From Selaginella moellendorffii (lineage: Eukaryota > Plantae > Lycopodiophyta), in assembly GCF_000143415.4 (NCBI RefSeq), contig NW_003314354.1:38575-102574 (forward strand): a DNA stretch of 64,000 nt, given 5' to 3'. The notes beneath the pieces were generated by a model. That model saw only the letters and a list, made by a program, of their open reading frames with translations, did no database searches and was not told the origin of the DNA. The position numbers and the translations under genes are program-made. Positions 19,020-46,141 of this stretch are shown here, piece after piece (the stretch's first letter is position 1; each line of letters begins with the position of its first letter).

Positions 19020-22000
19020 TCAGACTGTTATTTTTTGCCTCCAACGCCTATACAATAATCTTGGAATTTCATCACTCTCCATACTATCAGGATTTAAACC
19101 CAATAGTAATGCCATCTCTTCTCTAATATGTCCACGCTCATGTTCAGTGGTCGAAGAACCCATCCGGTTGAGCAGATTATGGAGATGCGGATAGTGCTTG
19201 GCTAGACAATATACATGCCATAAATGATGACTGGTGTCTGTCCGATCAAATGGCTTCTGATATACCGTTCCATCTGCCATTTGGTTGATTTCTGCAGCCA
19301 CCTCCTGGACTGGCCGGTTCTCTATCACCATCGCTCCAAGCCGTTTTGCAAGGTCCCCCAGAACATACGGTTTCTTCTCCCTAGTTTCCATACTGCAAGA
19401 GATGGGGTGCACTGCATATGTGTGCGTGTTCGCTGCAGTTTTAATCGGCGAGTCATCGATGATAAGGATTTCACTTGAGCTAGCAGTCCGGTTCATCACT
19501 ACAGCCTCTGGCTTGACGAAGATGGGCTTGCTACCCCTCACATGGACCATAGTCAAGCAATCCTCCTGCGTTAGGAGAAAGTCAAATGGTAATATTATTC
19601 GTGTCTGATCGTGCATCATCTGTAGCAACGTTAATGCATTGTGGCGCATCATGGATGTCCAAACTCCCAATTGCAAATTGAACCCGGCCCTCTGTTTTAA
19701 GTGTCGCATGGTCATTATTAGATCCCGCAGTTTCTCCCGTGTGATTAATGTGAATCTGTCTCTTTTGACCAACTTGCGACCGCAGGCTTTGGAGGGTGCA
19801 ATGACATTCGAGGACGAGCCACGCTCATGGGAGAAAAGGACACCGTTCAGATCAAAAACGATACAGTACCTTCGCCGTGACTCTGAAATGAAATGCGTCA
19901 GCATAAAAAATGGTACAAGTCAATTTTACCATCTACAATATTAGCGAATGTTGCTCCCGATGGTCGTTGAGAGGGTTTTGGTCGAGGAAACGTGAAGGGC
20001 GGAAATACTCTCCTCTGCAATGTGGGGTCAATCGCATCCGATGGCGTGTGGGCACATGCCATTTCAGTTGTAGACTCTGGTACAACTGGCTCAACAGTGG
20101 CATGGGGTGGTTCCGATGGCATGTGATCACACGCCATTTCAGCTGGTGCCTCCGTTGGCAAAGTGGACATGACCGAACAGGCAGTAGGGGCGGTGTAGGG
20201 AGGTTCCAACGGCGCGTAGTCAGATGATTGGGCACACGTTGGGTCCGTTGGAAATGAGGATACGACCGGCTCGGCGGCTGGGGCGGCCTCATGTGGGTCC
20301 AATGGCGCCTGGTCACCGTCAGTTGGATACGTGGACAAGATTGACTCAGTGGTATGGGCAGCATCAAGTGGAGCATGGTCAACTTGCTTGGCGTTGATAT
20401 GGATAGTAGCCTCCACCAGCTCTGATGACTCTTGTAGCCAAGTAGAGTCCACTGGCGGATCCATATGCATGTCCAAATATCTCCCTTCGATTGAGATGGT
20501 ATCCTCCCGTGCTACTAAAAACAAACTCATTAGCACATTGAATCGACTATACTGTATTTACCATCAACTGCTATTGAGGAACTAGGACCGATATCAGTTG
20601 GGCGCACTGCTGATTCTGAAGGATTGGACATACGTTTCGACCCTTGCTTGGCACTATCCTTCCTCGACACTAAAGGCTAGAGTTTGTAAATTCAACTGAA
20701 TAATCTCTACTTACCATTTGCTCTACGACCTACATGGACAATGTTAGAAATGGTAAAAGGTTAGGAATGGATGTAGTATTATTTACCTGATGGTTTGTCT
20801 TGTATGACCTTCCTCCGCTGCTCTTTGGCCACCTCAGGCTGGCCATTGTCGTCATCATCGTCGTCGTCGTTATTGTGATCGTCACCATTGTGAGGACCAT
20901 CTAAGTCCTCTTCGTCCTCCTCTTCTTCGTCCTCCTCTTCTTTGTCCTCCTCTTCGTCCTTCTGCTCTTCCTGCTCATTATCTTTCTCTGGCTCCTCATC
21001 CCCCTCCTGCATTTCTTCCATAGGCTACTCAGGCTGGATGGCTTGTTCTTCCAGGACCATCTTGGGAAAATCATCTGGCCGAGTCTCCATCTCAAAATAC
21101 AAGACATCCATAGCCTGTTTTAGTGCGTGACCTAGGACTGTATCCTCACCCGACTGTCTTAACATGGTTTCTGCACGTTCTTGCACCCTTCGAAGACGAC
21201 GAGATGAGAAAAATGTGGCCCTGACTTGAAAAGCTTCCCTCATCCATTGTACCTCTCCATTGAGATTGGGGAAGGGGAGTCTGCCATAGGAATCTGAGTC
21301 ATGAGGTGGTGACTGCCTGCTTTCACTCAGCCCTTGATCTGCAATGAATGGCATGAGCACACATGCCATAACCGCGAGGCATTACCTATCATCTTTTCGT
21401 TGCCCTTCTTCCTTTTCAAATCAAACGCCTCTGATCTCGACGACTATCCAACGTGCTTTCGCTTTTTATGACCACTGTCAGTTTGAGCTTGGCTGGTGCT
21501 TGCCTGTTTTGCCTTTGAAGAAGTTTCTCCTGCAAGGAATGGCATGAGACCACACGCCATTGCAAATATAATTTGTACCTCCTTTTTTCCTATTGCTTGT
21601 CTGTTTGTCCTTCTTCGATGCGCCACCAGTGTGCTTTTCAGTCCTCGTGTCTGAATATTCACAACGATCTATAATCAAAATGGCGTGAGGCCTCACGTGA
21701 CCTTACCTTGTGCAGGTTGTGAGCTCGGCCCAACATGGGTATCTTCAACAGTAGCTGTTAACGCCGTTTCAGCATCTGGGGGTGGCCACGCTCCTGCATA
21801 CAGAGCTTGTAAGATAACATTTAAACTTAAAGTGTGTACTCACCAAGTTCGCAGAGAAGATACTGTTTTTCTTTGGCAACTGTAATTATATGCTCCATTG
21901 AAGTCACCTCTTCAATGGAGTTTGTCACCGCAACACACGGGACACCCTTGAGTAGTGCGGCTCGAAAGAATAGTCTGCCGCAGTTGTACTCGACAACGCA

Positions 22001-22482
22001 TTGCCCTTGGAGTCGGAAGCAGGTGACCCACCCGCTATTGCGTTGAAGACCCAGCTGAGCATTTCCCATGCTGCACCTGGAGCTTTCTTTGGATTCGAAA
22101 GCTCCATAGCCGTCTTCAGTTCCTTAGGCACGGGTAAATTGACCTCCCTCAGATCAATTCGATTGGCCTTGTCGAACGAAGCTGGGAAGTCACTCCAGTC
22201 CCACTCTGCTGCAAGACCAATAACAAGGGCGAGTGTGAAGATGCGGACATTCGTCGGTATCTTCTTCTTAGCCATTATCCCATGGATCTCCCGCATCTCC
22301 TTGCCTTTCAACCGAGCCTTCACCTCGTTCAAGGCCTTCCAGAACTTGTGATAGGATTCGGAGTCGTAGATCATATAGTGGACTGAAGATTCCACCTCCG
22401 CAAGTCCCACCATTAAGTCAATGATGGAGCTGAATTCGTCTGCATGAGTGATCTCCTCGTTTGTGAAGTCCATCACACAAAA
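19020..22482 (-). pseudogene. 3' exons of the transposon accessory gene, copy 1: MTase-like C-part, acidic linker, FCP1/NIF HAD domain (last exon 19882-19020)
   Basis: HAD motifs CIVFDLNGVLF, LGVWTS, IFVK and LIIDDSPIK. GT-AG phase-1 introns link the ORFs. Nonsense codons at ~21444 and ~21022. Confidence 0.8.
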
Positions 22483-24805
22483 CTTGTTACTATTCCAACA
22501 AAGTATATACAATCGACGTGAGCCGTATCGACATCCAAAGCAAATACAACCACAGGCTAGTATCTGATGAGTGGGTGGAGAAACTGAAGCAGAAGATGCT
22601 GGCAAGTCCAGTAACACCCGACATCGCAGACGTGATCCCCTACTACCGAACAATGAAGGGCGAGACGAGGTTTCCAGACTTGATCAATAGGAAGGTGTTG
22701 GATGATCAGAACATCCGGTTCTATGCCATCTCCGGGCAGCATTCTAGCTTGGCGATGCAAGAGATAGTTGTGGATATTATGGTGGGCGAGGAGGTGAAGA
22801 AAGTCTTCAAGACAAGAGTTGTCCGCCTGATAAAAGGCAACTCGCCCCTCCGATCTATCATATACATCTCCCACGCGCAGAATGTCAAGCAAGAAACGTG
22901 CTACAAATTGGGTCTGCACGAGACATTGGCACGAACACGGAAGCTCTGGGTTCAACTGAAGAAGCCACAAAAACCAGGACAAGGACGTGCACTAGCAACT
23001 AGCGCCTGGCAGGTAAGCCTCGTTGCATGTGGCATAGCATGTGGCCTCACGCCATTTCCATTGCAGGAATTCTCGAGTCTTCTCTCGAAAACACTGGGGG
23101 TCAATGACACACTCAGCATCCATAACATTCTACTCGCGACAAAAGTTGTTTTTGACAAATGGGTAGATGTGCTGAGGAGGTACCATGACGGGGAGTTACT
23201 AAACTCAATGGGTGTGGAGGACGGCCGGAAGCCCAATGATTTGAAGCTCAACGCCTTGCGTTTCTTGCGGTCTCTAGACGACGACGACCTTCTGATAGTG
23301 GCTAATGCTCTTCTACGTGGTGAGGTAGTCTTCAACAAGACCAAAATGATTCTCGGCCATATTGTGACATACGAGGACTTGTGCACGACTCTGAGAGCTC
23401 GTGCACTATTGAAGGATTGGATCTTCGAGCAAGTGGCCGTGGAGAGGGTGAGCATTGACACCACGCAAGAGATGATGGAAGCGCTAGATTTGTCAAATGA
23501 AGACATCGACGAGTACGTGAAGGGGGCCCCCAAGTTCATCGATCTGCTGCGGGATGCCACGAAAAGTAAAGCTGAGAAGTTGGATCAGTATCCAAATTTC
23601 ATTAAGAGTGATGTCGACCGCTGGGTTCAGAAACAACTCGACCCCGCAGCAGAGGCCTATCGAGAACCTTACCGGGTGTACTTGAATTCGGATGAGGATC
23701 AAAGGTGGAGGAGCATCGTTTCCCGCGGAGATGAGCAGGTCAAGAACATCTTTTGTGTGATGGACTTCACAAATGAGGAGATCACTCATGCAGACGAAGT
23801 TAGCTCCATCATTGACTTAATGGTGGGACTTGCGGAGGTGGAATCTTCAGTCCACTATATGATCTACGACTCCGAATCCTATCACAAGTTCTGGAAGGCC
23901 TTGAACGAGGTGAAGGCTCGGTTGAAAGGCACGGAGATGCGGGAGATCCATGGGATAATGGCTAAGAAGAAGATACCGACGAATATTCGCATCTTCACAC
24001 TCGCCCTTGTTATTGGTCCTGCAGCAGAGTGGGACTGGAGTGACTTCCCAGCTTCGTTCGACAAGGCCGATCAAATTGATCTGAGGGAGGTCAATTTACC
24101 TGTGCCTGAGGAACTGAAGACGGCTATGGAGCTTTCGAATCCAAAGAAAGCTCCAGGTGCAGCATTGGAAATGCTCAGCTGGGTCTTCAACGCAATAGCG
24201 GGTGGGTCACCTGCTTCCGACTCCAAGGGCAAATGCGTTGTCGAGTACAACTGCGGCAGACTATTCTTTCGAGCCGCACTACTCAAGGGTGTCCCGTGTG
24301 TTGCGGTGACAAACTCCATTGAAGAGGTGACTTCAATGGAGCATATAATTACAGTTGCCAAAGAAAAACAGTATCTTCTCTGCGAACCTGGTGAGTACGC
24401 ACTTTAAGTTTAAATGTTATCTCACAAGCTCTGTATGCAGGAGCGTGGCCACCCCTAGATGTTGAAACGGCGTTAACAGCTATTGTTGAAGATACCCATG
24501 TTGGGCCAAGCTCATAACCTGCACAAGGTAAAGTCATGTGAGGCCTCACGCCATTTTGATTATAGATCGTTGTGAATATTCAGACACGAGGACTGAAAAG
24601 CGCACTGGTGGCGCGTCGAAGAAGGACAAACAGACAAGCAATAGGAAAAAAGGAGGTACAAATTATATTTGCAATGGCATGTGGTCTCATGCCATTCCTT
24701 GCAGGAGACACTTCTTCAAAGGCAAAACAGGCAAGCACCAGCCAAGCTCAAACTGACAGTGGTCATAAAAAGCGAAAGCACGTTGGACAGTCGTCGGGAT
24801 CAGAG
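22483..24805 (+). pseudogene. Middle exons of the accessory gene, copy 2: ParB-like and methyltransferase-like regions
   Basis: ORF 22518-24407 carries YNHRLVSDEWVEKLK...FYAISGQHSSLAM and GKCVVEYNCG..FFRAALLKG. Introns at 23013-23066, 24391-24440, 24528-24565 and 24656-24704. Stop TAA at 24515. Confidence 0.78.
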
Positions 24806-25274
24806 TATGAATGTTATTTAGTTTCATGAAAATACACTAAGGGTCAAATGAGTTAAATGACTTCTCCAGACTAGCAATGCCTCTTGCTACACCTTCACAA
24901 TTAGATTCGTTAGAAAAAGATAACATTGAATAATATCTAAATGTTCTCACCATTAAGTTATATGTCTGGCTAATAGGAATGACGTTCATCTTGGAAAGCT
25001 CACCATACGCTCAATGAACAAACAAATAGTGTGTGCGTGCATGCCATCACTCTTCTTTAGCTTCAGATTCGGCTTGTTCACCTTGACAATGAGATTTATT
25101 ATACAACCAGATGGACTCAGTCTGGACACAAAGTCACCGCGCTAGTCACCATGCCCCAGATATGTCTAGCCCCTGGACAAAAAACATATAATTTCACGTC
25201 ATTTTCAAATACTTGAAAATTTGTACCTAGTCCCATTTTACTGAATAAATCCCACTTTAACGAAATAGAGCTTA
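24806..25274 (-). mobile_element. A-end of DNA transposon copy 2, with TIR at 25250-25274
   Basis: Inverted near-identical copy of 30081-30549. Ends tcccactttaacgaaatagagctta, followed by GA (rc TC). Confidence 0.9.
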
Positions 25275-25349
25275 GATAAAATAGCCATTAAGGGCTCTCT
25301 TATCAAGCAATTGCCCCTTTTCCAGTTGACTTAAGAGGAGAGGAACACA

Positions 25350-25914
25350 TTGCCCCCCCTAAGGAACACATGCTTTGGGCTTTCACCCCAAGCATCCTTT
25401 AGTATAGTCTTTGGGATAAGCTTGAAACTTACTAAATATGGAATGGCACTAGATTGTGAATTTGAACACGGGACAAACACCATTGTGTTCAGGCCAATCT
25501 CTACATTCTGTAGATATGCCAAATGAGCAAATTTAGACACTTTCCATAAATAGTATTTAGGACTGAAATGATATTAATACAAAGGGCATGATAAGACACA
25601 ATAAGCTATCATTTAGCAATATTGAGGGACTAGTTTTAATACATGAGGGTTTTTGTCACTAGCAAGTGCAAGACAAAACAAGATGGGAACTCCTTATTGG
25701 GTTAAGTATGCTTAGCTAATAACACGTAGGAATTCCATCCTTATACTCGTCTAGTCTAAGTGCACTTGAAATGCCCAATTAACTCCACTAGCACAAGAGG
25801 GATTAATAAAGGGTCCAGCAATACCGACCTCTTGCCATCGTGGCAGTAAGGGAAGAGTGTTTGAAAGGACTGGCTGACAAATAACTTTCGATACCCAAAG
25901 TCACATTCACAACA
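25350..25914 (-). repeat. First part of the family-A 3' LTR (inverted)
   Basis: rc begins tgttgtgaatgtg after PPT gggggggagag (rc from 25915). Homologous to 16937-17516. Confidence 0.85.
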
Positions 25915-28900
25915 CTCTCCCCCCCTTAGGGAAGATCGACGTCCTCGTCAATGCATACTTGAGTTTAGAACACCACTAAGAAACAACTCCAGAAAAAGTT
26001 TATGGTATTCACACTATGTGAGAAATGCACCAACTTAAATGAGTTAGGAAGTAACCTCTTTCTCTAACGCGGATGCACTACTAACTCAAATGCCTTCCAG
26101 TTGCCGCTGACAAGGGAATGACCAATAGAGTCAGCCACCCTTGCTGCTCTAGGTGTCACCCAGCTTACAAAAGTGTGATACACCCATGCCCGTAGGGAGA
26201 TAGAGAGAGAAGCTAAAGGCCCCAACCCTCCTGAGCAAAGAAACCAAACCCGTCGGTAAGGTTTAGATAGACTACTGTAAACAGGTAGTTATAGTTGTTT
26301 ACACGGTCATGCCCTTTGAATGGAATAAGGAACATTGACAAAGAGGCAGGTGATGTGACTAGTCGACAATAGCTACCCCATGACTAGAGATTTCACCATA
26401 TACACGAAGTGCCGAAGCCAGTTTGCCTATACTGGCCCAAAGTCAAAGATCAATAGATGAATATTAAAGTCATAGACAATGATATCTGAGAGTTTTAACT
26501 ATCAGTGAATAAAGTTTAAATTAGAACACAAAAGTATTCCAAGTAAGTTATCATCTGATAAACTAGTATTATAGTATAGGAACCACCAAGATCAATATGA
26601 TTGAAAGATATAGGATTCACTATCCAACAAAATTCGATAGCCAAACTATCATCAAGAAAACTCAATGATAAAACTTAACTATCAAAGATTACAGATAGTA
26701 TGCCAAACAACTTACCAAAGATAACTCAACAAACACAAAGTATCATTGACTGGCAAGTAAGATGCTTACGAATGTATCACCCGAAGGAAATAATATCCCA
26801 ATCTATCAGAATTAACTTGAGCAATAATCAACAGAATAGAATAAATGCGGTAAGACTAACAAACACCCATTCATGCCAACTATCACAAAAGTCAATCTGA
26901 ATAAATCTTGGTCAACAATACAAAGGAACTCAAGTTGCTTAAGCAAGTGTCAGTAATATCCTATTGATGTCTCAAACCCAATAGACCAATCTAGAGTAAA
27001 CCATAAAGAACATATGGTATTGCAAAAAGTCATAAGCCATTAAAGAAAATAACTAATTATCATGAAAGATCATCAATCATCCCATCAATAAAGAAATCCA
27101 TAATTAATGTCAAAAAAAAAATCCACCATCCTAAAGAATAGTGAATCATTCTTTATCAACAATAATCAAGAAAAACCTTTTGACAAGGATAATCAACTAT
27201 CCTAAATAATAGTCAATCATCACCAATGATTGCCAGATATAAATACTAACTTCAACATCAAAGCTAATGAGCTAAATATACCTTCCCTAACAACTTTTAA
27301 CAAATGGATCAATGAGCACAAAACTCAAGGAACCAAAAGCTCAAAGAAGCCTATAATTAAGTCTTGCTTAATAATAATCACGAGTCTTGTAGGAACTAAC
27401 TTCAATGCTAAAGAGAAATTATGGTACAACCCATTATATCCCCCTCAACACATCTATAAGCTGAACTTCATAATGCCAAAGCTAATGAAGAGCATATTTG
27501 CATCAATCCAAAAGCTAAGCACAATGAAGCTATGCTCAACAAATAATCTTCTGATTGATCCTCCATGAATCCATTTATAGCAAAATGTAACTCACTTTAT
27601 AACAAACACAAGAAGAATCATCTATAATCAATATATCCCAACTCAAATCCAATAAGAATTCAAATATTCTAATATCGATCACTAGCTTTTCCTTTTGTAA
27701 AATTAGTATAGTCCACAACTAAATCACTTTTCAGTGAAAAACTAAAACTCAACCCCTACTAAACAATCTCGTCTAGAACATAAATAACTCAACTTGCCAC
27801 TCAAATCATTTAAACATCAATACAGTTGCTAACTAGCAAGTGTTTGAATGCCAATAACTTAAATCTATAACCAAATCATCAATACTATCTCTATCAAGAC
27901 TAATGAAACTCAATATCAATCCTAAGGAGAGACATCTCATTTTACTCAAATCTCAATATTAACAATGTCAACGACAAAGCATCACTTCAATGCCACCAAC
28001 ACCATAACAAAGCTATAGGAAAGCACGAGTGAATCACCACTCAAAACTCCCTAGCAACTAAGCTAACTAAAGTTGAAAATACTTTATTCAATATCCGAGA
28101 ACAATCCTTTAGCAAAACTCAGTTATAGATAACACTTCCTCAAGGAGTGAATCACCACATCCAAGACTCCATGAAATCCAACACTAAGGACTAAATGTAA
28201 CCAAATGACATTAACAAAGGTAGAATCGATATACCAACATGGAAAAACCATGTAAATCTAACAACACGATCCTCCACACCATCCGATAAAGCAAGCCCAT
28301 CACTGCTAAATCATCATTGAGTGAAGTAAGTGTTAAATAGTCTTTGACAAAGTCTACAAGCCATCATTAGCTGCCAAACAACAGACAATCACTCTTTCAA
28401 CTTGCTTTCATAAGACCCAAACACCAACTCTTGTCATCAAGTTATATTCTTGTTCAATATGAATGTAATACCTCAAGTATGAGATAAAGGTTCATAGGCA
28501 AGCATAAACCAAAGACCACTCGAAACCAACTCAGCCGCAATAAGCTCACTAATGCGTTTATCCAAAAGCTCTGAGCATGCCTTAAAGTGGCTAGCTACAC
28601 ATAATCAACACTTAGTTGAAACTAAAGTGAAGACCATGAGATGGACTCATATCAGTACACAACCTCCTCATAGATAAAGCTTTAGTATGGGTACCAACAG
28701 CTCAACCTCAAATAACTAAGTTGGATATCACCATCCTCTGCCAAAGCACAGGGCCACCAAGACTAAATCAGGATCAATAAGAGCTCACTACTCTCATAGA
28801 GTCTAATAAAATGCAAGGTCCAACCTGCCACCAAGCATAATGCTAAAAGAAAGGCATAAGGGTCACCCTTCTAGAAAAGTGCAATGGCCATTTTTTTACA

Positions 28901-30080
28901 CCAACTCTAGACTTTATCCAACTCAATTGCCTTAGTTGCAAAAGTCAGCATCCCTTTTGGGCCGCATCATACAAATCATTTACTAAGGTTTAGGCTAACC
29001 AAAGTCAACACTAACCCCTTCACTAGTTTGTATTGGCTTATGAAAATGAAATGGTTTTCAAGCAAAGTGATTAATAGATCAACCATTGAAAAAGTCTAAG
29101 AAAATTTGTAGAAAATTTTCCATCATAGAAAAAGAATGACTCTTAGTCTAGGAAATCAAACTTTCAAGACTCAACCAACTTCTTCCTACCTACAATTTCT
29201 GATAGGTTCTCCTCAACATAAATTCTCATGATCCATCAATATGCTTAAGCATTGAACATCTTTGCCTATATAACCGATATCTAACACCGACATTCGCAAA
29301 GTGCAAAATGAACATCCAAGGCTTGATCATGAAGACCACATCTTCGGATATCCACATTGCACTAACACTCTTCTTCAATCACCTTCAAGATCCAATGTGA
29401 AGCCAAAACACTAACAAGAAAAATGACATGAAACATCAAAGTCTAAGGAGAATTTCTTATCACTTGAAATAACAATGCCATTTCCACTAACACAAGTGTT
29501 AACAATATCAATGCCTCAACTACATACTTTCTCCATCCAATAATTTACTCCAAATGCTAATGGATCAACTAATAAGCCATAACAAGTGAATGCTATAACC
29601 CTTTCCAACATTACAATAGGCAAACTCAAGGAAACAAATACCAACTTAAGTTTAGCATAATGGACCACCACCGAGAATCCAGTCAAATCTACTACAATAC
29701 TACTTCGCAAGTAGACTAGTTTCACTATCAACCACTTTGGGGTTGATCATCATTTAACCAAGCAACTTCGTAAACACATTACTCACAATCATACAGATAT
29801 GATATGGAAATCACAATGACTTGATCATCAATTGAGCAACACCATGAGCAATGCACATGTCACTGCTACAAAGGTTTATATGAGTATTAAGTGTCAACTC
29901 GACTTGACGAAATGCAACATAAATGCCACACCCCACCGATAAAAATTTACAACACTTTAACACTACTAACTTTTGTTCACAATACAGACAAGCTCATATC
30001 AATCTCTTTTCGACCAAACTCAAAACTAATCCAACACCAAGCTACTTAAGGAGTAATAGCAAAATTTCCTAGAAAAGAAT
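25915..30080 (-). pseudogene. Degraded Gypsy pol of the family-A element (inverted segment)
   Basis: RT-like remnants SSIVV..VVHYAKL..LPIVMLE (29516-29731) and FLQIFLDF (~29100), with numerous stops. Confidence 0.6.
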
Positions 30081-30770
30081 TAAGCTCTATTTCGTTAAAG
30101 TGGGATTTATTCAGTAAAATGGGACTAGGTACAAATTTTCAAGTATTTGAAAATGACGTGAAATTATATGTTTTTTGTCCAGGGGCTAGACATATCTGGG
30201 GCATGGTGACTAGCGCGGTGACTTTGTGTCCAGACTGAGTCCATCTGGTTGTATAATAAATCTCATTGTCAAGGTGAACAAGCCGAATCTGAAGCTAAAG
30301 AAGAGCGATGGCATGCGTGCACACACTATTTGTTTGTTCATTGAGCGTGTGGTGAGCTTTCCAAGATGAACGTCATTCCTATTAGCCAGACATATAACTT
30401 AATGGTGAGAACATTTAGATATTATTCAATGTTATCTTTTTCTAACGAATCTAATTGTGAAGGTGTAGCAAGAGGCATTGCTAGTCTGGAGAAGTCATTT
30501 AACTCATTTGACCCTTAGTGTATTTTCATGAAACTAAATAACATTCATATTATTAAGGAATTTCTCTAGTACCTTTTTTTTACGACATAGAGGCTTGCAT
30601 TTCTTTCAAAGGTGATTTAGTAAAAGGCCTGAGGGCACATGCCATTCTATTTCTCAGACCGGTATTAAGATATACTAGTGCAAAGGGCCACATGCCATCA
30701 CGCCTCCTCTGATTCAGATTCGGATTGTTCACCTTGAAATAAAATACATTAGAAACTTAGTAAAGGAATA

Positions 30771-32580: not shown

Positions 32581-33329
32581 TGCGCTCAGCGGAACCAAGA
32601 ACACGGCGCACAAAAATGATAGACCTAGGAAGGAGTTCGAGAATTCAAAAATAACACACGCTTGAACGTCACATCAAATCCTCTGACAAACCAGATCTTA
32701 TGATTCCTCTGACAAATTTCAAACTGAGTAGCTTCTAGACTTTGCTGTCGGAGGTTGAACTTTGTCACATCATGTCCTTGCCTCGATCCAGCTGTGCCAT
32801 GTCAGTGATTCGAACTTTGCCATGCCATGTCAGCGATCCGCGCCAAGATTATTCGCCGTGTAAAGGAATAATTATGCTGTGTGTGTACGTCCATTTATGG
32901 CAATATAAGGCCACACGCCATTCAAAGAATAATGCTAGTCGAGCATTTTTTGGTGCATTTTTGGGTTCAAAATTGCATGAGCCCACACGCTATAAAGTTT
33001 ACCTGTACCAAAAATAGAAACAGCTTTATTTACTTGGGAATTTAAGTGGTTGAGGCATTTTTAAACTTACAAACACATGCCCTACTTACATTTATTTGGT
33101 TGCTTAAAATTCAAAAATATTATAAACCTTTCTTTTTGCATTTTCAATGTTTTCAATTATGGTTTTTGATTTTCGCAGGACCAGCCTAGTAATCTATTTG
33201 CATCCCGTCATGTTTATAGCTAGCTTTCGTTTGTCCCCTTCGCTGGCCTGAGATACATCTGCTCGGAATCTGCCTCTTACAGCATTTGCCCAGAAAGGGC
33301 ATCTTTCTTCACGCAGCATTTGCCACATG

Positions 33330-33361
33330 TTTAGGGTTAGGGTTTAGGGTTTAGGGTTTAG
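33330..33361 (+). repeat. Interstitial plant telomere-type repeat (TTTAGGG)n in the transposon promoter
   Basis: tttagggttagggtttagggtttagggtttag; inverted copy at 38881-38912. Confidence 0.9.
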
Positions 33362-34589
33362 CAATTCAGTAGCTTGATAAACATGCAAATACAGAACTTA
33401 ATGCAAAATCCTTTGATATGTCACAATGCCCCTAGGACCATAAACACATTTCAATAGAGAGGGTCCTTTCATTTCATAACTCCTTACGTAGATCTTAGTG
33501 AAACCAGAGTTAGTGAAGTTGGTTTCTTGTGATCCCGCATCTAATTGTGATGTCCCTTTGCAGTGTCGATGGAAAGGTCAATGCACACCAAACTGTAGAA
33601 TCTTGGAGCAAAATAACGGTCGGATCTATGGCAAATGCCCCTGAAATATTGTAAGGCTTGTGTGGTCTTATGTGGTGTCTGATCGAGATGCTTTTTTGCA
33701 GGGTCATCAAGAAGGACATTGTATACCATTCTGTAAAATCTAGTTGCGATCTAACGGTTGGATCTCCAGGAAACTCAAAACAATCTCGCGCGTGTCAGAA
33801 TATTCTAGGAATATACTCCTATGTGCTCCTGAAAATGGCATGCGGCCCCACGCCATTCAAGAGATAACGCCAGATGACGCCGAGCATTTTTTGGTGCATT
33901 TTTTGGGATCAAAATTGCATGAGCCCACACGCTTGAACGTCACATCAAATCCTCTGACAATTTATTTAGCTGAACATCTGGCATTTTTGGAAATACAAGA
34001 TGCTTTGGAATATCCAATCATGCATGGTATAAATATAGCGAGGGTATTAAATGATATCCCAATCATCATCTTTCTTTTGGATTTCGCGTGCATGCAGTCC
34101 GAGGAATGATGACGTTGCGGATTTCTTTTGGATTTCACGCATGCGCGCGCCGATCCAGAAATTAATGGTGGCGCCCAAGTCCGAGGAATGATGACGTGGC
34201 GGGATTACCAACCGTCATGACATTTCGCGCGTGTGAGGTTAGGTTTTGCATTTTGCTTCGTACTCGCGCTCGCATCGCGCTCCCACTCGCGTTCCCACTT
34301 CTCTATAGGTTTCTCGTGTGCATCGGCGTCCACTCGCGCTTGCATCACACTCGCGCTCGCATCGCGCTCGTGTGCATCGGTGTCCACTTCAAGACACACC
34401 CAGTTTGTAACTTCGCCGCCAACTCTGCTGCCCACTCCGCCACCCACACGCAGCCCACTTGGCGTCCCGAGAGATTTCAGCGCCACTCTCCAACTGTAAG
34501 TGGCAGAGTAGCCTTGCTGCTACGATCCGCTGCACACACAGTGCACATTCGCCAGCGAGTCTGGTTGTCACGCTTCCATTCGGCTTCAA

Positions 34590-36739
34590 ATGGTAAGTCT
34601 TTTAGGCCAAGTAGAAAATGGCATGAGGCCACATGCCATTCAGTAGCAACATTGGCATGCACCGATTGGGCTCTCGAGTGCAGTCTGGTTACAGATGGCG
34701 TGTAGCCTCACGCCATCTTAGGATGCAGCCTCAAGACATCTGATGCAGTGGTGAATGGCGTGTGGCCTCACATTATTTCCAGCTACTAGCTTTTCATCTG
34801 TCAGCTCTAATTGTTGTGCATTTCTGAACAGGCGAGGAATTGCGTTCTTCTTCCAGCCACTGTCAATGTGGATGCAAAGAAGGGGGAGGAGCTCACCAGT
34901 TGGACTTTCGGGATGGAAGGCGAGGATCTGAGGCTGTACAACACAGATGGTGGGAGAAAAGAATGCATGGGGATCCTCATCCAAGTGACAGACACTCCAT
35001 GCAGTTCCATGCAAGAATATGGACTGGCACTTGTGGTAGAGACAGCGTCTACCTTCAAGATCCACCTTGCACATCCTAGCGGCTTCCCGAAGGGGGGCAG
35101 CGGCTATGAGGAATTCCTAGAGGGAGCTAGGGAGAGGTTGTCCAAGAGGCCCACAATTTCAAAGACGCTGCGGGTCTATGAAGATCACATGGAATCCACG
35201 GACCTCACCTACGGTGATGTTCAAAAACTATATTCCAACATTGAGCCGTTGAGAGTGACTCCAGTTCGCGAAGCAAAGGGGAAGGGGGTCGATCTGGAAA
35301 CTACCTCGAAGCAGAAAAGGGTGGTCAAGCTCAAGCCGACGTCCGACTCTCCTGCTCCAAAAAAGAAGCTACTCAGTGATGCCATTGCCTCGAGTTCGAA
35401 CACTACACCCACCAAAAAGAAGAGCCGCAAAGAGCAGAAAGAGCAAGAAGAGGCAGCAAAAATCGTCGCAGATAATAGTACTTGTTACTATTCCAACAAA
35501 GTATATACAATTGACGTGAGTCGTATCGACATCCAAAGCAAATACAACCACAGGCTAGTATCTGATGAGTGGGTGGAGAAACTGAAGCAAAAGATGCTGG
35601 CAAGTCCAGTAACACCCGACATCGCAGACGTGATCCCCTACTACCGAACAATGAAGGGCGAGACGAGGTTTCCAGACTTGATCAATAGGAAGGTGTTGGA
35701 CGATCAGAACATCCGCTTCTATGCCATCTCCGGGCAGCATTCTAGCTTGGCGATGCAAGAGATAGTTGTGGATATTATGGTGGGCGAGGAGGTGAAGAAA
35801 GTCTTCAAGACAAGAGTTGTCCGCCTGATAAAAGGCAACTCGCCCCTCCGATCTATCATATACATCTCCCACACGCAGAATGTCAAGCAAGAAACGTGCT
35901 ACAAATCGGGTCTGCACGAGACATTGGCACGAACACGGAAGCTCTGGGTTCAACTGAAGAAGCCACAAAAACCAGGACAAGGACGTGCACTAGCAACTAG
36001 CGCCTGGCAGGTAAGCCTCGTTGCATGTGGCATAGCATGTGGCCTCACGCCATTTCCATTGCAGGAATTCTCGAGTCTTCTCTCGAAAACACTGGGGGTC
36101 AATGACACACTCAGCATCCATAACATTCTACTCGCGACAAAAGTTGCTTTTGACAAATGGGTAGATGTGCTGAGGAGGTACCATGACGGGGAGTTGCCAA
36201 ACTCAATGTGTGTGGAGGACGGCCGGAAGCCCAATGATTTGAAGCTCAACGCCTTGTGTTTCTCGCGGTCTCTAGATGACGACGACCTTCTGATAGTGGC
36301 TAATGCTCTTCTACGTGGTGAGGTAGTCTTCAACAAGACCAAAATGACTCCCGGCCATATTGTGACATACGAGGACTTGTGCACGACTCTGAGAGCTCGT
36401 GCGCTATTGAAGGATTGGATCTTCGAGCAAGTGGCCGTGGAGAGGGTGAGCATCGACACCACGCAAGAGATGATGGAAGCGCTAGATTTGTCAAATGAAG
36501 ACATCGACGAGTACGTGAAGGGGGCCCCCAAGTTCATCGATCTGCTGCGGGATGCCACGAAAAGTAAAGCTGAGAAGTTGGATCAGTATCCAAATTTCAT
36601 TAAGATTGATGTCGACCGCCGGCTTCAGAAACAGCTCGACCCCGCAGCAGAGGCCTATCGAGAACCTTACCGGGTATACTTGAATTCGGATGAGGATCAA
36701 AGGTGGAGGAGCATCGTTTCCCGCAGAGATGAGCAGGTC
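34590..36739 (+). pseudogene. 5' exons of the accessory gene, copy 1 (N-terminal region and ParB-like domain), truncated by an inversion breakpoint
   Basis: ATG|gtaagt at 34590. Intron 34593-34831 gives M-ARNCVLL in frame with ORF 34811. In-frame intron at 36011-36064. Homology to 22483-23741 ends at 36739. Confidence 0.78.
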
Positions 36740-37617: not shown

Positions 37618-38880
37618 TTGAAGCCGAATGGAAGCGTGACAACCAGACTCGCTGGCGAATGTGCACTGTGTGTGCAGCGGATCGTAGCAGCAAGGCTACT
37701 CTGCCACTTACAGTTGGAGAGTGGCGCTGAAATCTCTCGGGACGCCAAGTGGGCTGCGTGTGGGTGGCGGAGTGGGCAGCAGAGTTGGCGGCGAAGTTAC
37801 AAACTGGGTGTGTCTTGAAGTGGACACCGATGCACACGAGCGCGATGCGAGCGCGAGTGTGATGCAAGCGCGAGTGGACGCCGATGCACACGAGAAACCT
37901 GTAGAGAAGGTAGATGAGCGCGAATGTGAGCGTGATCGCGAGTGGGAGCGCGATGCGAGCGCGAGTGTGCGAGCGCGAGTACGAAGCAAAATGCAAAACC
38001 TAACCTCACACGCGCGAAATGTCACGACGGTTGGTAATCCCGCCACGTCATCATTCCTCGGACTTGGGCGCCACCATTAATTTCTGGATCGGCACGCGCA
38101 TGCGTGAAATCCAAAAGAAATCCGCAACGTCATCATTCCTCGGACTGCATGCATGCGAAATCCAAAAGAAAGATGATGAATGGGATATCATTTAATACCC
38201 TCGCTATATTTATACCATGCATGATTGGATATTCCAAAGCATCTTGTATTTACAAAAATGCCAGATGTTCAGCTAAATAAATTGTCAGAGGATTTGATGT
38301 GACGTTCAAGCGTGTGGGCTCATGCAATTTTGATCCCAAAAAATGCACCAAAAAATGCTCGGCGTCATCTGGTGTTATCTCTTGAATGGCATGGGGCCGC
38401 ATGCCATTTTCAGGGGCACATAGGAGTATATTCCTAGAATATTCTAACATGTGCGAGATTTTTTTGAGTTTTCTGGAGATCCAACCGTTAGATTGCAACT
38501 AGATTTTACAGAATGGTATACAATGTCCTTCTTGATGACCCTGCAAAAAAGCATCTCGATCAGACACCACATGAGACCACACAAGCCTTACAATGTTTCA
38601 GGGGCATTTGCCATAGATCCGACCGTTATTTTGCTCCAAGATTCTACAGTTTGGTGTGCATTGACCTTTCCATCAACACTGCAAAGGGACATCACAATCA
38701 GATGCGGGATCACAAGAAACCAACTTCACTAACTCTGGTTTCACCAAGATCTACGTAAGGAGTTATGAAATGAAAGTACCCTCTCTATTGAAATGTGTTT
38801 ATGGTCCTAGGGGCATTGTGACATATCAAAGGATTTTGCATTAAGTTCTGTATTTGCATGTTTATCAAGCTACTGAATTG

Positions 38881-38912
38881 CTAAACCCTAAACCCTAAAC
38901 CCTAACCCTAAA
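38881..38912 (-). repeat. Interstitial telomere-type repeat (CCCTAAA)n
   Basis: ctaaaccctaaaccctaaaccctaaccctaaa. Confidence 0.9.
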
Positions 38913-40022
38913 CATGTGGCAAATGCTGCGTGAAGAAAGATGCCCTTTCTGGGCAAATGCTGTAAGAGGCAGATTCCGAGCAGATGTATCTCAGGCCAGT
39001 GAAGGGGACAAACGAAAGCTAGCTATAAACATGACGGGATGCAAATAGATTACTAGGCTGGTCCTGCGAAAATCAAAAACCATAATTGAAAACATTGAAA
39101 ATGCAAAAAGAAAGGTTTATAATATTTTTGAATTTTAAGCAACCAAATGAATGTAAGTAGGGCATGTGTTTGTAAGTTTAAAAATGCCTCAACCACTTAA
39201 ATTCCCAAGTAAATAAAGCTGTTTCTATTTTTGGTACAGGTAAACTTTATAGCGTGTGGTCTCATGCAATTTTGAACCCAAAAATGCACCAAAAAATGCT
39301 CGACTAGCATTATTCTTTGAATGGCGTGTGGCCTTATATTGCCATAAATGAATGTACACACACAGCATAATTATTCCTTTACACGGCGAATAATCTTGGC
39401 GCGGATCGCTGACATGGCATGGCAAAGTTCGAATCACTGACATGGCACAGCTGGATCGAGGCAAGGACATGATGTGACAAAGTTCAACCTCTGACAGCAA
39501 AGTCTAGAAGCTACTCAGTTTGAAATTTGTCAGAGGAATCATAAGATCTGGTTTGTCAGAGGATTTGATGTGACGTTCAAGCGTGTGTTATTTTTGAATT
39601 CTCGAACTCATTCCTAGGTCTATCATTTTTGTGCGCCGTGTTCTTGGTTCTGCTGAGCGCAGTGAGCGCTGCTTGTGTAAGCGGCGTTGTGAGCTGTGGT
39701 TTATGCGTCTACAAGCAGTTGCGCCATTGCGAGCGGCAGTTTATGCGAGTGGCAGTTTGTGCGAGCGGCGCTACGAGCAGTTGCGGTGTTGCGAGCGGCG
39801 CTACAAGTAGTTGCAGTGTTGCGAGCGGCACTGTCTTTGGTGTGGCTACCGCTTCCTCTTGATATTCGGCACTTGTGCTTCCTGGTATGTTCACCATGGA
39901 ATGGCTTAGGACCACATTTAGAAATGGCATGAGGCCACATGCCATCTTGGGCCCTTGCAATTTCATGGCTAGCGTATTGTCATGTATGTTTTTACTTGCC
40001 TGCAGCTGTGTGTATATCAAGA

Positions 40023-40212
40023 TGGCATGAGGCCTCATGCCATCTTTGGCCCCTGCTAGCCTATTGCCATATTCCTTTTGCCTTGCTGCAACTGTATATA
40101 TTTTTGTATGGGTGACTAGTCACACACACAAAAATATATACAGTTGCAGCAAGGCAAAAGGAATATAGCAACAGGCTAGTAGGGGCCAAAGATAGCGTGA
40201 GGCCTCATGCCA
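40023..40212. repeat. 190-bp loopless imperfect palindrome
   Basis: Symmetric about gtgact|agtcac (centre 40117/40118). Both arms end in tggcatgaggcctca. Confidence 0.9.
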
Positions 40213-40356
40213 ATTTTGTGAATGCGAAATTTCACGTGGGTGTCAATAGCATGTTTGAATAATGGCATATGGCCTCATGCTATTTGGTATGTTATGATTT
40301 AGGCCATTCTCCAATCATTTTTTGTATGGTCTTAACTTCTTTTCTGCACTTTCAGA

Positions 40357-43300
40357 ATGGCCTTCAGGGTTGGGGAAAAGGTTTACATTTTGAATGGTGG
40401 GAAGAGAGTTGCAAAAGGGACCCTTGTGTCTATGGATCGGAACTTTGTTATACACTGTCAAAGGCTTGGGGAAGGCAATGCTGCTATATCAGTAGAGACT
40501 GTCTTTGATGGGAATGTGGTTGCTATTGAACGAGGAGAGATGGTCGTCGGGGTAAATGTTCTTGTTGCCTTGAAAAATCTGCAAAAGAAAGCAGATGTTG
40601 GGGACAACGCAAGTGCGACACATGTTCCCTCCGTGGATCTTAAGAACCGTGCTACATGGATTTAGGCAAAGGTGTTTCTAAACAACCCCGAGGGGGAGGT
40701 GGTAGCTGAGGGCTTAGCCACAGTTGTCGATCCAAGAGATGCGGTTGCTAATCAAGAATTGGGCTGGGATGATATTGGAGTTGCGATTTTAGAGGTTGTT
40801 GACACAGAAGAAAACAGTCTGACTATTGGAAGCATTGTGCGGTGGAAATTGAGGCATTTAGTGTTTGAGAATGTGAAGGATTCACAATCAAACACCACTA
40901 CAACTGATGACAGAACATCTCTTCATGGGAAAAGAAAGTACACCTTCCTAAAGCGCAGCCAAAGGGATCTGAGCAACAAACCGAAAAGGCAGAAAATGGC
41001 GATGGAGGTTCGAATGGTCTCGACAGTTGCTTGTTGCAAGAGGAGGTGCTGTCAACATGCTGATTGGGATGCTATTGAAGAGGAGAGAGCAAGATACAAG
41101 ACATTGTCCTGGAAGGCAGCTCGCAATTTTGTGTATGAGGCATTACGGTCATCTGTTGATGCTTCAGAACATCAGGTGGGGGGCATGGTCTTCCAGAGGG
41201 GTTTGGTCTGCATGAAGGCATGGAGAATCATTTATGGAGTCCCTCGAAACACATTCTACATAATCAAAACTGAGTTCGAGGAACAAAGGGTTCAACAGGC
41301 AGTCCATGGGAACGACGGTACGCACAAAACCAGGGGTCATGTTGTATATGGAGAGGCAATCTTCAAGAGGTTTGTCGAGACATGTAGCGAGCAGCAACCA
41401 CATAAAACCCGCCTCTTGGAAGATGGAACACGAGACTCCCAACGAGTTCTCCCTTCCATGTATACCAAAGGGGCCATATTGGAAGATGTGAATCGGGAAC
41501 TCCAGAGTAATGGCTACAGGAAGCTGAGCCAATCTAGATTTAGTAGATTGTGGAGCAACAGGTTCAGGGATGTGAGTATAGGAAAGTACTCCAGCTTTTC
41601 AAAGTGTGACAAGTGCACTGCTATCAAAATGGCTTTGTCGAAGAATTCTTGCAGCGCTCAAGAGCGAGAGACATTGGTTAGAAGGCGGCTCGACCACAAC
41701 ATCGAGCAGAGAAGCTGCAGGACTGCATATTATCATAACAGGATTCTCTCCATGGAGAGACCTAACTCTTACCTCTGCATCATCCACGACAAAATGGACC
41801 AGAAAAAGACGTGCTTACCTCGACTCAATCCTGCCCCCAAGGCAATCTCTTCATCCATGCAGCTGCCTGTGTCTCTATTTGGCATAATCGCTCATGGGCA
41901 TGGTGCCCAGAACTATGGGAACTTCTTTGTACCTCTATGGTGTGGCGGGGGTGCAAACATGATGATTGCATCTCTAGCAAAACACTTAAGGTCTCTACAA
42001 AGTGCGCAGACTGAGCTGAACGGCCAACCCTTGCATAAGGCCCTTGTCGATCGAACCCCATACAGGGTTCAGCTGGAGGAGGAGCAAAGGCTTGCAGTAT
42101 CGCGTGGGGCCCCATGCCATCCCAGTGAATATGTTGGCCGTCAGATTGTAGGGTTATCACGTGAAGCCTCATGCCATTCCGACGAGGCTGGTCGCCCGGT
42201 GAATGCACAGCCTCATCCAAATGAAACAGAATCTCAAGGAAGTTCTTGCGACCGATGTGGCCTTCCACCCCATCTTCTGCTCCAAACAGACAATACTGGC
42301 AGTGAGAACAAAAACATGTACGTCTTCACGTACTTGGCGATGCTTGTTGCCAAAGGCATATTTGAAACAGTTACACTTGGCTTTCTCATGGTTGGGCACA
42401 CTCATGAAGACGTCGATGCCATGTTCAGTCACCTGGCAGAGTCGCTCCGGCGATCCAATGTCCTCACCCTCCCACAACTCTACGATGAATTCCAAAATTG
42501 CATCAAAGTCACTGTTGAAGCTGCACTTGTGACAGAGGTTCCAGACTTTAAGGGGTTTGTAAGAGGCTACATCAGGGACGGATCCGAAACGCTGATTGGC
42601 CACTCCAAGCCTCTTCAGTTTCATTTCAGCATGCGTGACGGTGCTCCAGTGATGAGGTACAAGATGAGAGAATGGGACACAGTGTGGCTGCCAGTGGACG
42701 GCATTGAACTCTTCAAGAGAGATCCCATAACTGGGGAACCTATGATTCCTCAGGGTTCCCCACGGCCGATGGACCCGGATGGACTCAAAGACCAGGAAAG
42801 TATAGTGGCCGGGATTAGACAGCATATTGCCTTCTGGAAGAGGGGGTTGGTGTTTGGTGGAGAATCCTATTTTAAGAGGTGCAAGCCTTTGCTTGAATAC
42901 TGGGAGAAGATTATATCTGCTATCCAAAATGGGCCGGTTGTATATGAAGAATTGGAAGAGTCCTTTTGGCCAGAACCCAGAGCACCAGATAGTAGCGAAA
43001 CAATGTCCTCTGGAAATGCAGTGACAGATAACGATGTTGAAGATCACTATTGTGGGCCAAGGAACAAGAAGCCGGATTCAGCATTCAATCCAGTACAGGT
43101 CTACAAAGGAATGGTCGTGCTTGTCAGACCCAGTAATAAAAAACAAATGATATGGGTGGGGCGCTGCATCACTGATGCAGAGGAGGACGCGGAAACTAAC
43201 TCCTTCAATGTAACTGTGGAGTGGTTCAAGCCAAGTTCCGGATATACGAAGGATTGCCTAGAAAAGAGATGGGTGCTGAATCCAAGGGATCCCAGCATGA

Positions 43301-43425
43301 GCATATTGGTGGATAATGTTGTGCATGGTTAGATGCGGAAGCAGAGTGCCACCATCACCTTGCTAGACCATGCAAGAGATGCAGCAAGAGCATTCATAAC
43401 CCGGGTTCAAGGTGAGATTCATTAA
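40357..43425 (+). pseudogene. DUF7869/Sola1-like DDD transposase, ~1020 aa, with two nonsense codons (40663, 43330)
   Basis: ORFs 40357-40665 and 40672-43332 share one frame. Motifs: KCDKC..H zinc site, D in HDKMDQ (41788), D in QTDNTGSENKN (42289) and GHTHEDVD (~42395-42417). Copy 1 has Trp at the second stop. Confidence 0.88.
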
Positions 43426-43748
43426 TATTCCTTTACTAAGTTTCTAATGTATTTTATTTCAAGGTGAACAATCCGAATCTGAATCAGAGGAGGCGTGATG
43501 GCATGGCGTGATGGCGTGAGGCGTGACACCAAAAAGGAGGTGTCCACTAGCGCTTAGGCTTATAATGGCGTGTGCCCTCATGCCATTTACTTGATCACCA
43601 AATACCTTTTTCCCTTTGCACTAGTATATCTTAATACCGGTCTGAGAAATAGAATGGCATGTGCCCTCAAGCCTTTTACTAAATCACCTTTGAAAGAAAT
43701 GCAAGCCTCTATGTCGTAAAAAAAAGGTACTAGAGAAATTCCTTAATA

Positions 43749-46141
43749 GGCGTTTGATTCGAAAAGGAAGAAGGGCTACGAAAAGATGATAGGTAATGCC
43801 TCACGGTTATGGCGTGTGTGCTCATGCCATTCATTGCAAATCAAGGGCTGAGTGAAAGCAGGCAGTCACCACCTCCTGACTCAGATTCCTATGGCGGACT
43901 CCCCTTCCCCAATCTCAATGGAGAGGTACAATGGATGAGAGATGCTTTTCAAGTCAGGGCCACGTTTTTCTCATCTCGTCGTCTTCGAAGGGTGCAAGAA
44001 CGTGCAGAAACCATGTTAAGACAGTCGGGTGAGGATACGGTCCTAGGTCACGCACTAAAACAGGCTATGGATGTCTTGTATTTTGAGATGGAGACTCGGC
44101 CAGATGATTTTCCCAAGATGGTCCTGGAAGAACAAGCCATCCAGCCTGAGCAGCCTATGGAAGAAATGCAGGAGGGGGATGAGGAGCCAGAGAAAGATAA
44201 TGAGCAGGAAGAGCAGAAGGACGAAGAGGAGGACAAAGAAGAGGAGGACGAAGAAGAGGAGGACGAAGAGGACTTGGATGGTCCTCACAATGGTGACGAT
44301 CACAATAACGACGACGACGATGATGACGACGATGGCCAGCCTGAGGTGGCCAAAGAGCAGCGGAGGAAGGTCATACAAGACAAACTATCAGGTAAATAAT
44401 AGTACATCCATTCCTAACATTGTCCATGTAGGTCGCAGAGCAAATGGTAAGTAGAGATTATTCAGTTGAATTTACAAACTCTAGCCTTTAGTGTCGAGGA
44501 AGGATAGTGCCAAGCAAGGGTCGAAACGTATGTTCAATCCTTCAGAATCAGCAGTGCACCCAAGTGATATAGGTCCTAGTTCCTCAATAGCAGTTGATGG
44601 TAAATACAGTATAGTTGATTCAATGTGCTAATGAGTTTGTTTTTAGTAGCACGGGAGGATACCATCTCAATCGAAGGGAAATATTTGGACATGCATATGG
44701 ATCCGCCAGTGGACTCTACTTGCCTGCAAGAGTCATCAAAGCTGGTGGAGGCTACTATCCATATCAACGCCAAGCAAGCTGACCACGCTCCACTTGATGC
44801 TGCCCATACCACTGAGTCAATCTTGTCCATGTATCCAACTGACGGTGACCAGGCACCATTGGACCCGCATGAGGCCGCCCCAGCTGCCGAGTCGGTCGTA
44901 TCCCCATTTCCAACGGACTCAACGTGTGCCCAATCGTCTGACTACGCGCCGTTGGAACCTCCCTACACCGCCCCTGCTGCCTGTTCGGTCATGTCCACTT
45001 TGCTAACGGAGGCACCAGCTGAAATGGCGTGTGATCACACGCCATCGGAACCACCCCATGCCACTGTTGAGCCAGTTGTACCAGAGTCTACAGCTGAAAT
45101 GGCATGTGCCCACACGCCATCGGATGCGATTGACCCCACATTGCAGAGGAGAGTATTTCCGCCCTTCACGTTTCCTCGACCAAAACCCTCTCAACGACCA
45201 TCGGGAGCACCATTCGCTAATATTGTAGATGGTAAAATTGACTTGTACCATTTTTTATGCTGACGCATTTCATTTCAGAGTCACGGTGAAGGTACTGTAT
45301 CGTTTTTGATCTGAACGGTGTCCTTTTCTCCCATGAGCGTGGCTTGTCCTCGAATGTCACTGCACCCTCCAAAGCCTACGGTCGCAAGTTGGTCAAAAGA
45401 GACAGATTCACATTAATCACACAGGAGAAACTGCGGGATCTAATAATGACCATGCGACACTTAAAACAGAGGGCCGGGTTCAATTTGCAATTGGGAGTTT
45501 GGACATCCATGATGCGCCACAATGCATTAACGTTGCTACAGATGATGCACGATCAGACGCGAGTAATATTACCATTTGACTTTCTCCTAACGCAAGAGGA
45601 TTGCTTGACTATGGTCCATGTGAGGGGTAGCAAGCCCATCTTTGTCAAGCCAGAGGCTGTAGTGATGAACCGGACTGCTAGCTCAAGTGAAATCCTCATC
45701 ATCGATGACTCGCCGATTAAAACTGCAGCGAACACGCACACATATGCAGTGCACCCCATCTCTTGCAGTATGGAAACTAGGGAGAAGAAACCGTATGTTC
45801 TGGGGGACCTTGCAAAATGGCTTGGAGCGATGGTGATAGAGAACCGGCCAGTCTAGGAGGTGGCTGCAGAAATCAACCAAATGGCAGATAGAACGGTATA
45901 TCAGAAGCCATTTGATCGGACAGACACCAGTCATCATTTATGGCATGTATATTGTCTAGCCAAGCACTATCCGCATCTCCATAATCTGCTCAACCGGATG
46001 GGTTCTTCGACTACTGAACATGAGCGTGGACGTATTAGAGAAGAGATGGCATTACTATTGGGTTTAAATCCTGATAGTGTGGAGAGTGATGAAATTCCAA
46101 GATTATTGTATAGGCGTTGGAGGCAAAAAATAACAATCTGA
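43749..46141 (+). pseudogene. 3' exons of the accessory gene, copy 2: acidic linker, Pro/Ala repeats, FCP1/NIF HAD domain (45279-46141)
   Basis: Introns at 43793-43839 (acceptor mutated), 44392-44431, 44447-44491, 44600-44646 and 45232-45278. Stops at ~45287 and ~45854. Confidence 0.8.

Follow-up and report, generated by a model that had tools for sequence, protein, structure and literature searches.

A ParB-like accessory gene with a putatively degenerate methylase and a probable phosphatase-like tail in a palindrome-rich DNA transposon of Selaginella moellendorffii

Transposon accessory genes that combine ParB with an amino-methylase are already known from algae. Sola1-1_Ec32 of Ectocarpus (21.5 kb) encodes, on the strand opposite its transposase, a 1104-aa protein with ParB and N4C/N6A methylase parts, and similar proteins are cited in green and red algae (PMC12477816). 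In the red-algal Plavaka elements, PAG3 unites ParB with a 2-oxoglutarate (2OG) oxygenase, adjacent inverted-repeat arrays being proposed as its sites (10.1101/2025.02.11.637652), and VANC of the VANDAL elements binds within introns and non-coding stretches (PMC5735166). Some eukaryotic methylases have been traced to phage ParB-terminase loci, none of them, in the accessible part of that source, with the architecture reported below (PMC4738411). Adenine methylases of retrotransposons are reported to be absent from Streptophyta, and the available portion of that report does not mention ParB (10.64898/2026.05.21.726589). Here, we describe an accessory gene carried by a DUF7869 transposon in a 64,000-nucleotide stretch of Selaginella moellendorffii DNA (assembly GCF_000143415.4, contig NW_003314354.1, positions 38,575 to 102,574, forward strand; hereafter the window, to whose first letter all positions refer). 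A first-pass annotation, made from the letters alone, had read the gene itself well; it missed the transposon context and a self-specific 20-bp palindrome, and the ParB-methylase module had already been published for algal transposons (PMC12477816). What is new is the land-plant occurrence, the putatively degenerate methylase, the predicted HAD tail and palindromes that double as branch-point-like sites. The literature covered (subscription papers and supplements were outside the scope) yielded no paper on a NIF/FCP1 domain in such a gene, and only algal cases of ParB-methylase transposon genes.

The transposon and its two reshuffled copies

The gene-bearing unit is a multi-copy cut-and-paste DNA transposon, of which the window holds two decayed copies, alpha and beta. 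Self-comparison of the window resolved positions 18577-46584 into blocks, each present twice at 97-99% identity and standing in the order -A -B +C +B -D X +D -E -F +G +C -G +H +F u +E +A. Once set in the native order D, E, u, F, H, G, C, B, A, they give one 12,615-bp element with terminal inverted repeats (TIRs). Both local copies are cut into blocks and reshuffled, and the accessory gene is intact in neither. The structural features are as follows.

30081-30105 (+): left TIR of copy alpha, 25 bp, sharing the 2-bp duplication AT with the end at 18577
18577-18601 (-): right TIR of copy alpha, paired with the 30081 end by AT
25250-25274 (-): left TIR of copy beta, sharing the 2-bp duplication TC with the end at 46584
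46560-46584 (+): right TIR of copy beta, paired with the 25274 end by TC
47040-47140 (+): uninterrupted paralogue of the repeat hit by copy beta (empty site)
25275-30080 (unstranded): host or repeat DNA between the copies, flipped relative to its original orientation according to the target-duplication pairing
40357-43420 (+): DUF7869 transposase gene (PF25273, E 1e-42), which in the native element points away from the accessory gene
30691-32581 (-): second transposase copy, 5'-deleted (block F, with block H having been lost at 4 nt of microhomology)

A common 25-bp sequence marks the four ends (18577, 25274, 30081 and 46584), and terminal inverted repeats, target duplication and transposase together identify a TIR DNA transposon. 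The sequences flanking 25274 and 46584 are the two halves of a repeat whose intact paralogue lies at 47040-47140, and their comparison gives a 2-bp duplication, TC. Target duplications were thus 2 bp (TC, AT) at both insertions, one of them checked against an empty site. Readings as TA, TAA or 4-bp duplications were dropped, the empty site favouring 2 bp with TAAG termini. Members of the Sola superfamily make 4-bp target duplications, and DUF7869-type transposases may be Sola-like. Because its duplications are 2 bp at both insertions, the element is not filed as Sola and is called Sola-like only; judged from these two insertions, a DUF7869 element that combines 2-bp duplications with TAAG termini may belong to a lineage of its own.

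The transposase spans blocks H-F with an 888-codon open stretch (40666-43332) and carries the motifs DKMD, DNT and GHTHEDVD, its N-terminus giving a weak TNP1/EnSpm-like match (E 0.005, under the cut-off). The copy at 40357-43420 has premature stops at 40663 and 43330; an independent sequencing run (X2) differs at the former, and the second window copy is open at the latter. Between the catalytic motifs lies an insertion of about 90 codons (42000-42290) with two in-frame palindromes, possibly an unrecognised intron, and upstream of the gene, at 40020-40215, there is an inverted repeat with 85-bp arms and palindromes at its borders.

The native joins G-C, C-B, B-A and E-D are all present in run X2, and those that cross window breakpoints (G-C, C-B and B-A) also stand in the second copy. 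Contig depth in X2 was 80-135 over the element compared with 3-15 over flank contigs, values that should not be read as copy numbers. The native joins in X2 indicate that the reassembly of exons across the breakpoints is right and that the unit is a multi-copy DNA transposon. Moreover, the 106-bp block u (43506-43611), missing from one window copy, is skipped in an X2 contig of depth 41 too, and its deletion is therefore a polymorphism of the family. As the pairing of target duplications crosses the present layout, the DNA between the copies was flipped.

It is possible, although rather doubtful, that part of the shuffling arose in assembly, through confusion of two inverted copies that are nearly identical. 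Flips within inverted repeats of 97-98% identity are indistinguishable from misjoins without spanning reads, and X2 has, among the rows listed, native joins only at the breakpoints. However, X2 offers only high-depth consensus contigs, in which a junction from a single locus would not show, and the four novel junctions, at 22482, 24805, 36739 and 43748, lie at non-homologous positions with small deletions or microhomology, which points to real double-strand-break repair.

The accessory gene and its predicted protein

In the native element the accessory gene runs divergently from the transposase. Its parts are distributed over the window as follows.

32578-34589 (+): upstream region (block G), with palindromes, a TTTAGGG tract at 33329-33361 and an rRNA-like patch at 34497-34536; second copy 37618-39664 (-)
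34590-36010 (+): exon 1 (ATG), intron 1 (239 nt, three palindromes) and exon 2; N-terminal region of unassigned fold, basic linker and ParB/Srx domain (~35480-35900)
22482-24390 (+): second ParB-domain copy, intron 2 (23013-23066) and exon 3; conserved helical region and methylase-like domain
24441-24805 (+): exons 4 and 5 with the 5' portion of exon 6, encoding a low-complexity linker; exon 6 stands intact at 21386-21529 (-)
43750-45231 (+): exon 6 (3' part) to exon 10, encoding an acidic tract and a linker rich in Pro, Ala and Ser; other copy at 19930-21428 (-)
19020-19882 (-): exon 11, NIF/FCP1-like HAD domain (PF03031), open copy; two-stop copy 45279-46141 (+)

The first-pass exon assembly was borne out: the twelve segments 34590-34592, 34832-36010, 23067-24390, 24441-24527, 24566-24655, 24705-24805+43750-43792, 43840-44391, 44432-44446, 44492-44599, 44647-45231 and 45279-46141 join into 4950 nt in a single frame, with 11 exons, 10 introns and about 1650 codons. 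All ten introns are canonical GT..AG in at least one copy, the mutated acceptor of intron 6 (43839) being AG in the other, and introns 3-10 are all in phase 1. Apart from intron 1, with 239 nt, the introns measure 38-57 nt. As had also been claimed, the defects of one copy are intact in the other: each of the three internal stops of the composite reading (codons 861, 1366 and 1555) is open there, and the other copy has two stops of its own (exons 6 and 7) and a 1-nt deletion in exon 3. Besides this frameshift, both non-triplet indels in the gene (17 and 4 nt) sit in introns, i7 and i8. Intron 2 falls at the same alignment column in homologues from other plants, where several unspliced gene calls stop and others begin just past it; a Selaginella RefSeq protein reads straight through. 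The position of the indels and the shared intron 2 column make the gene model more than a chance product.

Spliced reads over the junctions, which the first-pass annotation had proposed to look for, failed to appear: no splice joint or spliced contig was found in the six of 23 sequencing runs compared (X1, X2, X8, X9, X10 and X11). This weighs against the model, as does a lone low-depth contig in a presumed RNA run that crosses the intron 1 acceptor unspliced. Two of the runs, X8 and X9, had no mapped reads and were no test of splicing, and X1, with gapless coverage of promoter and introns, behaves like DNA. In X10, 260 reads mapped, 256 of them only in part and nearly all on one 40-nt patch. 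With the splice signals and frame as its basis, splicing into one 1650-aa protein is nonetheless quite probable.

The patch lies about 55 nt upstream of the accessory ATG (34497-34536, +; 37675-37714, -); abundant RNA reads match it and then run into unrelated sequence on both sides. It resembles the 3' portion of large-subunit rRNA in the sense orientation of the gene, and may be a captured fragment in its 5' leader, an assignment for which confirmation failed. Between the divergent genes stand about five TTTAGGG plant telomere-type repeats (33329-33361 and 38881-38913), which could be a telobox-type promoter element.

Homologues were retrieved from Selaginella and Calypogeia, nine of the 11 matches being genuine; P0003 and P0006 were spurious and were dropped. 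Of two further candidate loci, one (L003) was a chance match in a bacterial glycosyltransferase operon and the other (L001) was unrelated. In a protein atlas searched by language-model features, two clusters were of streptophyte proteins, 813 and 1673 aa long, at 0.96 and 0.92. Four S. moellendorffii proteins (P0001 and P0012-P0014, 379-451 aa) comprise only the helical and methylase-like region and could be truncated annotations or a domesticated copy. Comparison of the ParB, methylase-like, NIF and transposase parts with PDB sequences, PHROGs, NCBIfam, phages and viral contigs was blank or spurious, and none of 10 window open reading frames (ORFs) had an exact counterpart in the protein collection.

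The predicted ParB/Srx core fold is supported by structure searches with a model of the 177-aa region (predicted local distance difference test, pLDDT, 74.9). Using Foldseek, 28 of the 29 listed rows were of ParB/Noc/Srx type (Noc, ParB, PadC, KorB, Srx, SbnI; best E 1.8e-4). The VIA structure search gave PadC (Z 10.2, root-mean-square deviation 3.2, 100 aligned) followed by KorB (Z 9.2), the top 12 of 23 rows belonging to the ParB/Srx superfamily. The fold proposed in the first-pass annotation thus stands, and its GxxR nucleotide-binding motif does not: GQH is invariant and is followed by Ser or Thr, not Arg, in all seven aligned sequences. The missing arginine is a point against the self-recognising role proposed below, and makes canonical CTP clamping doubtful. 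In a closer set of homologues, an Arg upstream and an Asn downstream of GQH are retained. Fold searches gave no helix-turn-helix match for the conserved helical region behind the ParB domain, although the element has a palindrome, and nothing clear with the 646-aa model; the N-terminal region matched homologue P0004 without significance (E 0.057).

The next region was read in the first pass as a beta-class amino-methylase that had lost DPPY and FxGxG. The loss is confirmed, PPY and FxGxG being absent from the window protein and every aligned homologue, and the family identity is plausible but unproven. Of the named atlas clusters, those of ParB+N6_N4_Mtase lay nearest to the 646-aa ORF (0.77-0.79), and with the methylase-like region alone all four family-named rows were N6_N4_Mtase (PF01555; 0.79-0.80), both to be read as leads. 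Two homologues beat 500 of 500 shuffles against a methylase profile. Other results were weak or went against the assignment. The region has no Pfam match, and the window copy did not rise above shuffles, 344 of 500 reaching its score. A viral beta-class methylase profile aligned by hhalign was collinear at motif IV (DPPY) and then motif I (HPTQKP..VLDPF), without significance (P 0.057 and 0.088). A decoy-controlled ranking of 67 methylases among 266 ORFs was also negative, with an area under the curve of 0.48 for the family and noise up to 0.69. The fold model has pLDDT <50 over residues 486-619 and generic alpha/beta matches (best Z 7.3, root-mean-square deviation 3.8, 95 aligned). Helped by the published algal precedent, a methylase ancestry is probable, and the domain is likely disabled to judge from its motifs.

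Exon 11 matches the NIF family PF03031 above the Pfam gathering cut-off (26.8 and 25.5 bits versus 21.8), with HAD motifs I-IV recognisable as DLNG, WTS, K and DD. The catalytic motif DxDx(T/V) is replaced by DLNGVL in both copies, the second Asp having become Asn, so the family named in the first pass holds and the designation 'CTD phosphatase' is not established; presumably, there is a DLNG subfamily in plants and fungi. Its place in a single polypeptide, also proposed in the first pass, is backed by splice signals and frame, on which the fusion would rest, and finds no fused homologue among those retrieved.

The HAD exon might instead be a passenger gene in its own right or a last exon that is used optionally, the main product being a shorter ParB-methylase-like protein as in algae, an alternative we consider unlikely. 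The facts that favour it weigh against the fusion: the HAD domain occurs in no retrieved homologue (the nine genuine matches being fragments of 134-492 aa), the Selaginella protein terminates after the methylase-like region, one atlas cluster from Streptophyta has only 813 aa, and an in-frame ATG within intron 10 means that the exon could start independently. Against such a separation, the eight consecutive canonical introns from exon 3 to exon 11 keep one open frame, the frame-breaking indels sit in introns, and the sole AATAAA of blocks B and A lies past exon 11. Moreover, the 1673-aa streptophyte cluster fits the predicted length, though without any common Pfam family.

The palindrome and the proposed role of the protein

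The fused protein would have a candidate target within its own element.

18965-46196 (unstranded): 36 of the window's 37 matches to the 20-bp palindrome, all within the two element copies

By chance 0.02 matches would be expected; as the pattern was drawn from this same sequence, the clustering and not the count is the evidence. The native element has 21 sites, upstream of both genes, in introns 1, 2, 4, 5 and 6 and in the 3' region. In introns 2, 4, 5 and 6, the palindrome stops 10-12 nt short of the acceptor, and CTCAY, a branch-point-like word, stands in its 3' half. The ends of these introns are mutually alike, at most five of 1000 shuffles reaching the score in each of the six pairs. The sites likely entered the accessory gene packaged as introns, and it is fairly probable that the accessory protein binds the palindrome, as predicted here.

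Decay between the copies amounted per site to 76/786 for CG (9.7%), 54/780 for CHG (6.9%) and 42/3137 for CHH (1.3%). The excess of CG and CHG decay over CHH argues that the host methylates the element in plant fashion, and hence that there is silencing to counter. Taken with the TTTAGGG repeats and the homologues in Selaginella and Calypogeia, the same excess suggests a seed-free land plant as the host. We lean, with some reserve, towards a self-recognising regulator that binds the palindrome and keeps the chromatin of its element permissive by means of an acidic linker, a methylase fold that is probably inactive, and a phosphatase-like domain that is probably fused to the rest. With similar reserve, we would expect it to oppose silencing and not to serve transposition. 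In the proposed mechanism, the accessory gene would be transcribed divergently from the transposase, and a dimer of its product would recognise the two-fold symmetric site either through the ParB domain or through the conserved helical region that follows. The sites, dense ahead of both genes and in introns, would concentrate the protein on the element, as with VANC on VANDAL. There, the methylase-like fold might bind DNA or act as a shield, and the HAD domain and acidic tract would engage host chromatin or phosphoproteins. Two points tell against this role: four of the 21 sites lie in open frames, and the literature covered contained no binding or silencing data for such proteins.

An improbable alternative is a transposition cofactor of the CACTA TnpA kind, whose palindrome binding would pair or load the element ends for the transposase instead of countering silencing. 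Sites occur on both arms and near the ends, the transposase N-terminus has its weak TNP1/EnSpm-like match, and ParB proteins are generally known as DNA clamps that bridge DNA. However, the majority of sites lie inside the element, in introns and ahead of the two genes, and are not crowded at the termini, and the methylase-like, acidic and HAD parts would fit chromatin work better. Least likely of all is an active, divergent methylase (N4-methylcytosine or N6-methyladenine) with the element's own DNA as its target, the role put forward for Sola1-1_Ec32: all five aligned family sequences retain an Asp at motif IV, the four named atlas rows are N6_N4_Mtase, and a liverwort uses a bacterial-type N4-methylcytosine methylase (10.1101/2021.02.12.428880), but PPY and FxGxG are gone throughout.

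More speculatively, and with little expectation that all of it holds, the anti-silencing reading might be extended. Land-plant transposons would possess ParB/parS-like self-recognition, whose site colonised the introns of its own gene by doubling as a branch point. The bound protein would bring along a captured host HAD domain (a phosphatase or phospho-protein trap) and a dead methylase fold, a second plant anti-silencing system that is independent of VANC and acts via phosphorylation state, not DNA modification.

Surroundings of the element and comparison with known systems

Outside the element, the window contains pieces of a host major-facilitator transporter gene at 59208-60766 (-) (MFS_1, E 2.9e-8), a reverse transcriptase fragment at 56144-56614 (-) and, at 4900-14800, a group of decayed repeats that are depleted in CpG, contain tandem arrays of 6/12/23 bp and match no Pfam family.

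The closest described counterpart is like the present element a giant DNA transposon with an accessory gene opposite the transposase. As in Sola1-1_Ec32-type accessory proteins, likened here by description, the gene lies inside the element, on the strand opposite the transposase, and its product has a ParB-like N-terminal part, followed by what is probably an N4C/N6A methylase-type domain; binding to the own element was proposed there too (PMC12477816). In contrast, the predicted product has about 1650 aa instead of 1104, and the methylase motifs are lost here while the algal methylase is described as productive; neither a phosphatase domain nor a palindrome is mentioned for Sola1-1_Ec32 in the accessible part of that source (PMC12477816).

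Phage ParB + N6_N4_Mtase fusions have the same domain order and form the nearest named atlas clusters (at lead level), but PHROGs, phages and viral contigs gave no sequence match, and the Selaginella gene has in addition a long helical insert, introns, motif loss and C-terminal additions. Compared with NIF/FCP1/SCP HAD phosphatases, the tail passes the PF03031 cut-off and displays motifs I-IV, and comes without BRCT or other FCP1 parts.

With PAG3 and PAG2, as far as the source describes them, the element shares a ParB-like accessory protein with inverted-repeat candidate sites and, putatively, an amino-methylase in the same cassette. They differ in that PAG3 carries a 2OG oxygenase fusion, the methylase has a gene to itself (PAG2, with SET) and the host element is of EnSpm type; moreover, the PAG3 arrays are tandem and adjacent, whereas the sites here are dispersed into introns. 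The likeness to VANC, in the portion of that work consulted, is a functional analogy only, with no homology expected: in both cases the element encodes the protein and has a short motif of its own that is enriched in introns and non-coding sequence. VANC motifs are non-palindromic and 8-9 bp long, and the function of VANC is shown, while that of the present protein is inferred. Overall, the accessory module appears to swap its effector, from a methylase to a 2OG oxygenase and, here, a HAD domain. In this land-plant case the candidate site is defined, the family is present at high depth and homologues occur in Selaginella and a liverwort, so that the binding idea can be tested directly.

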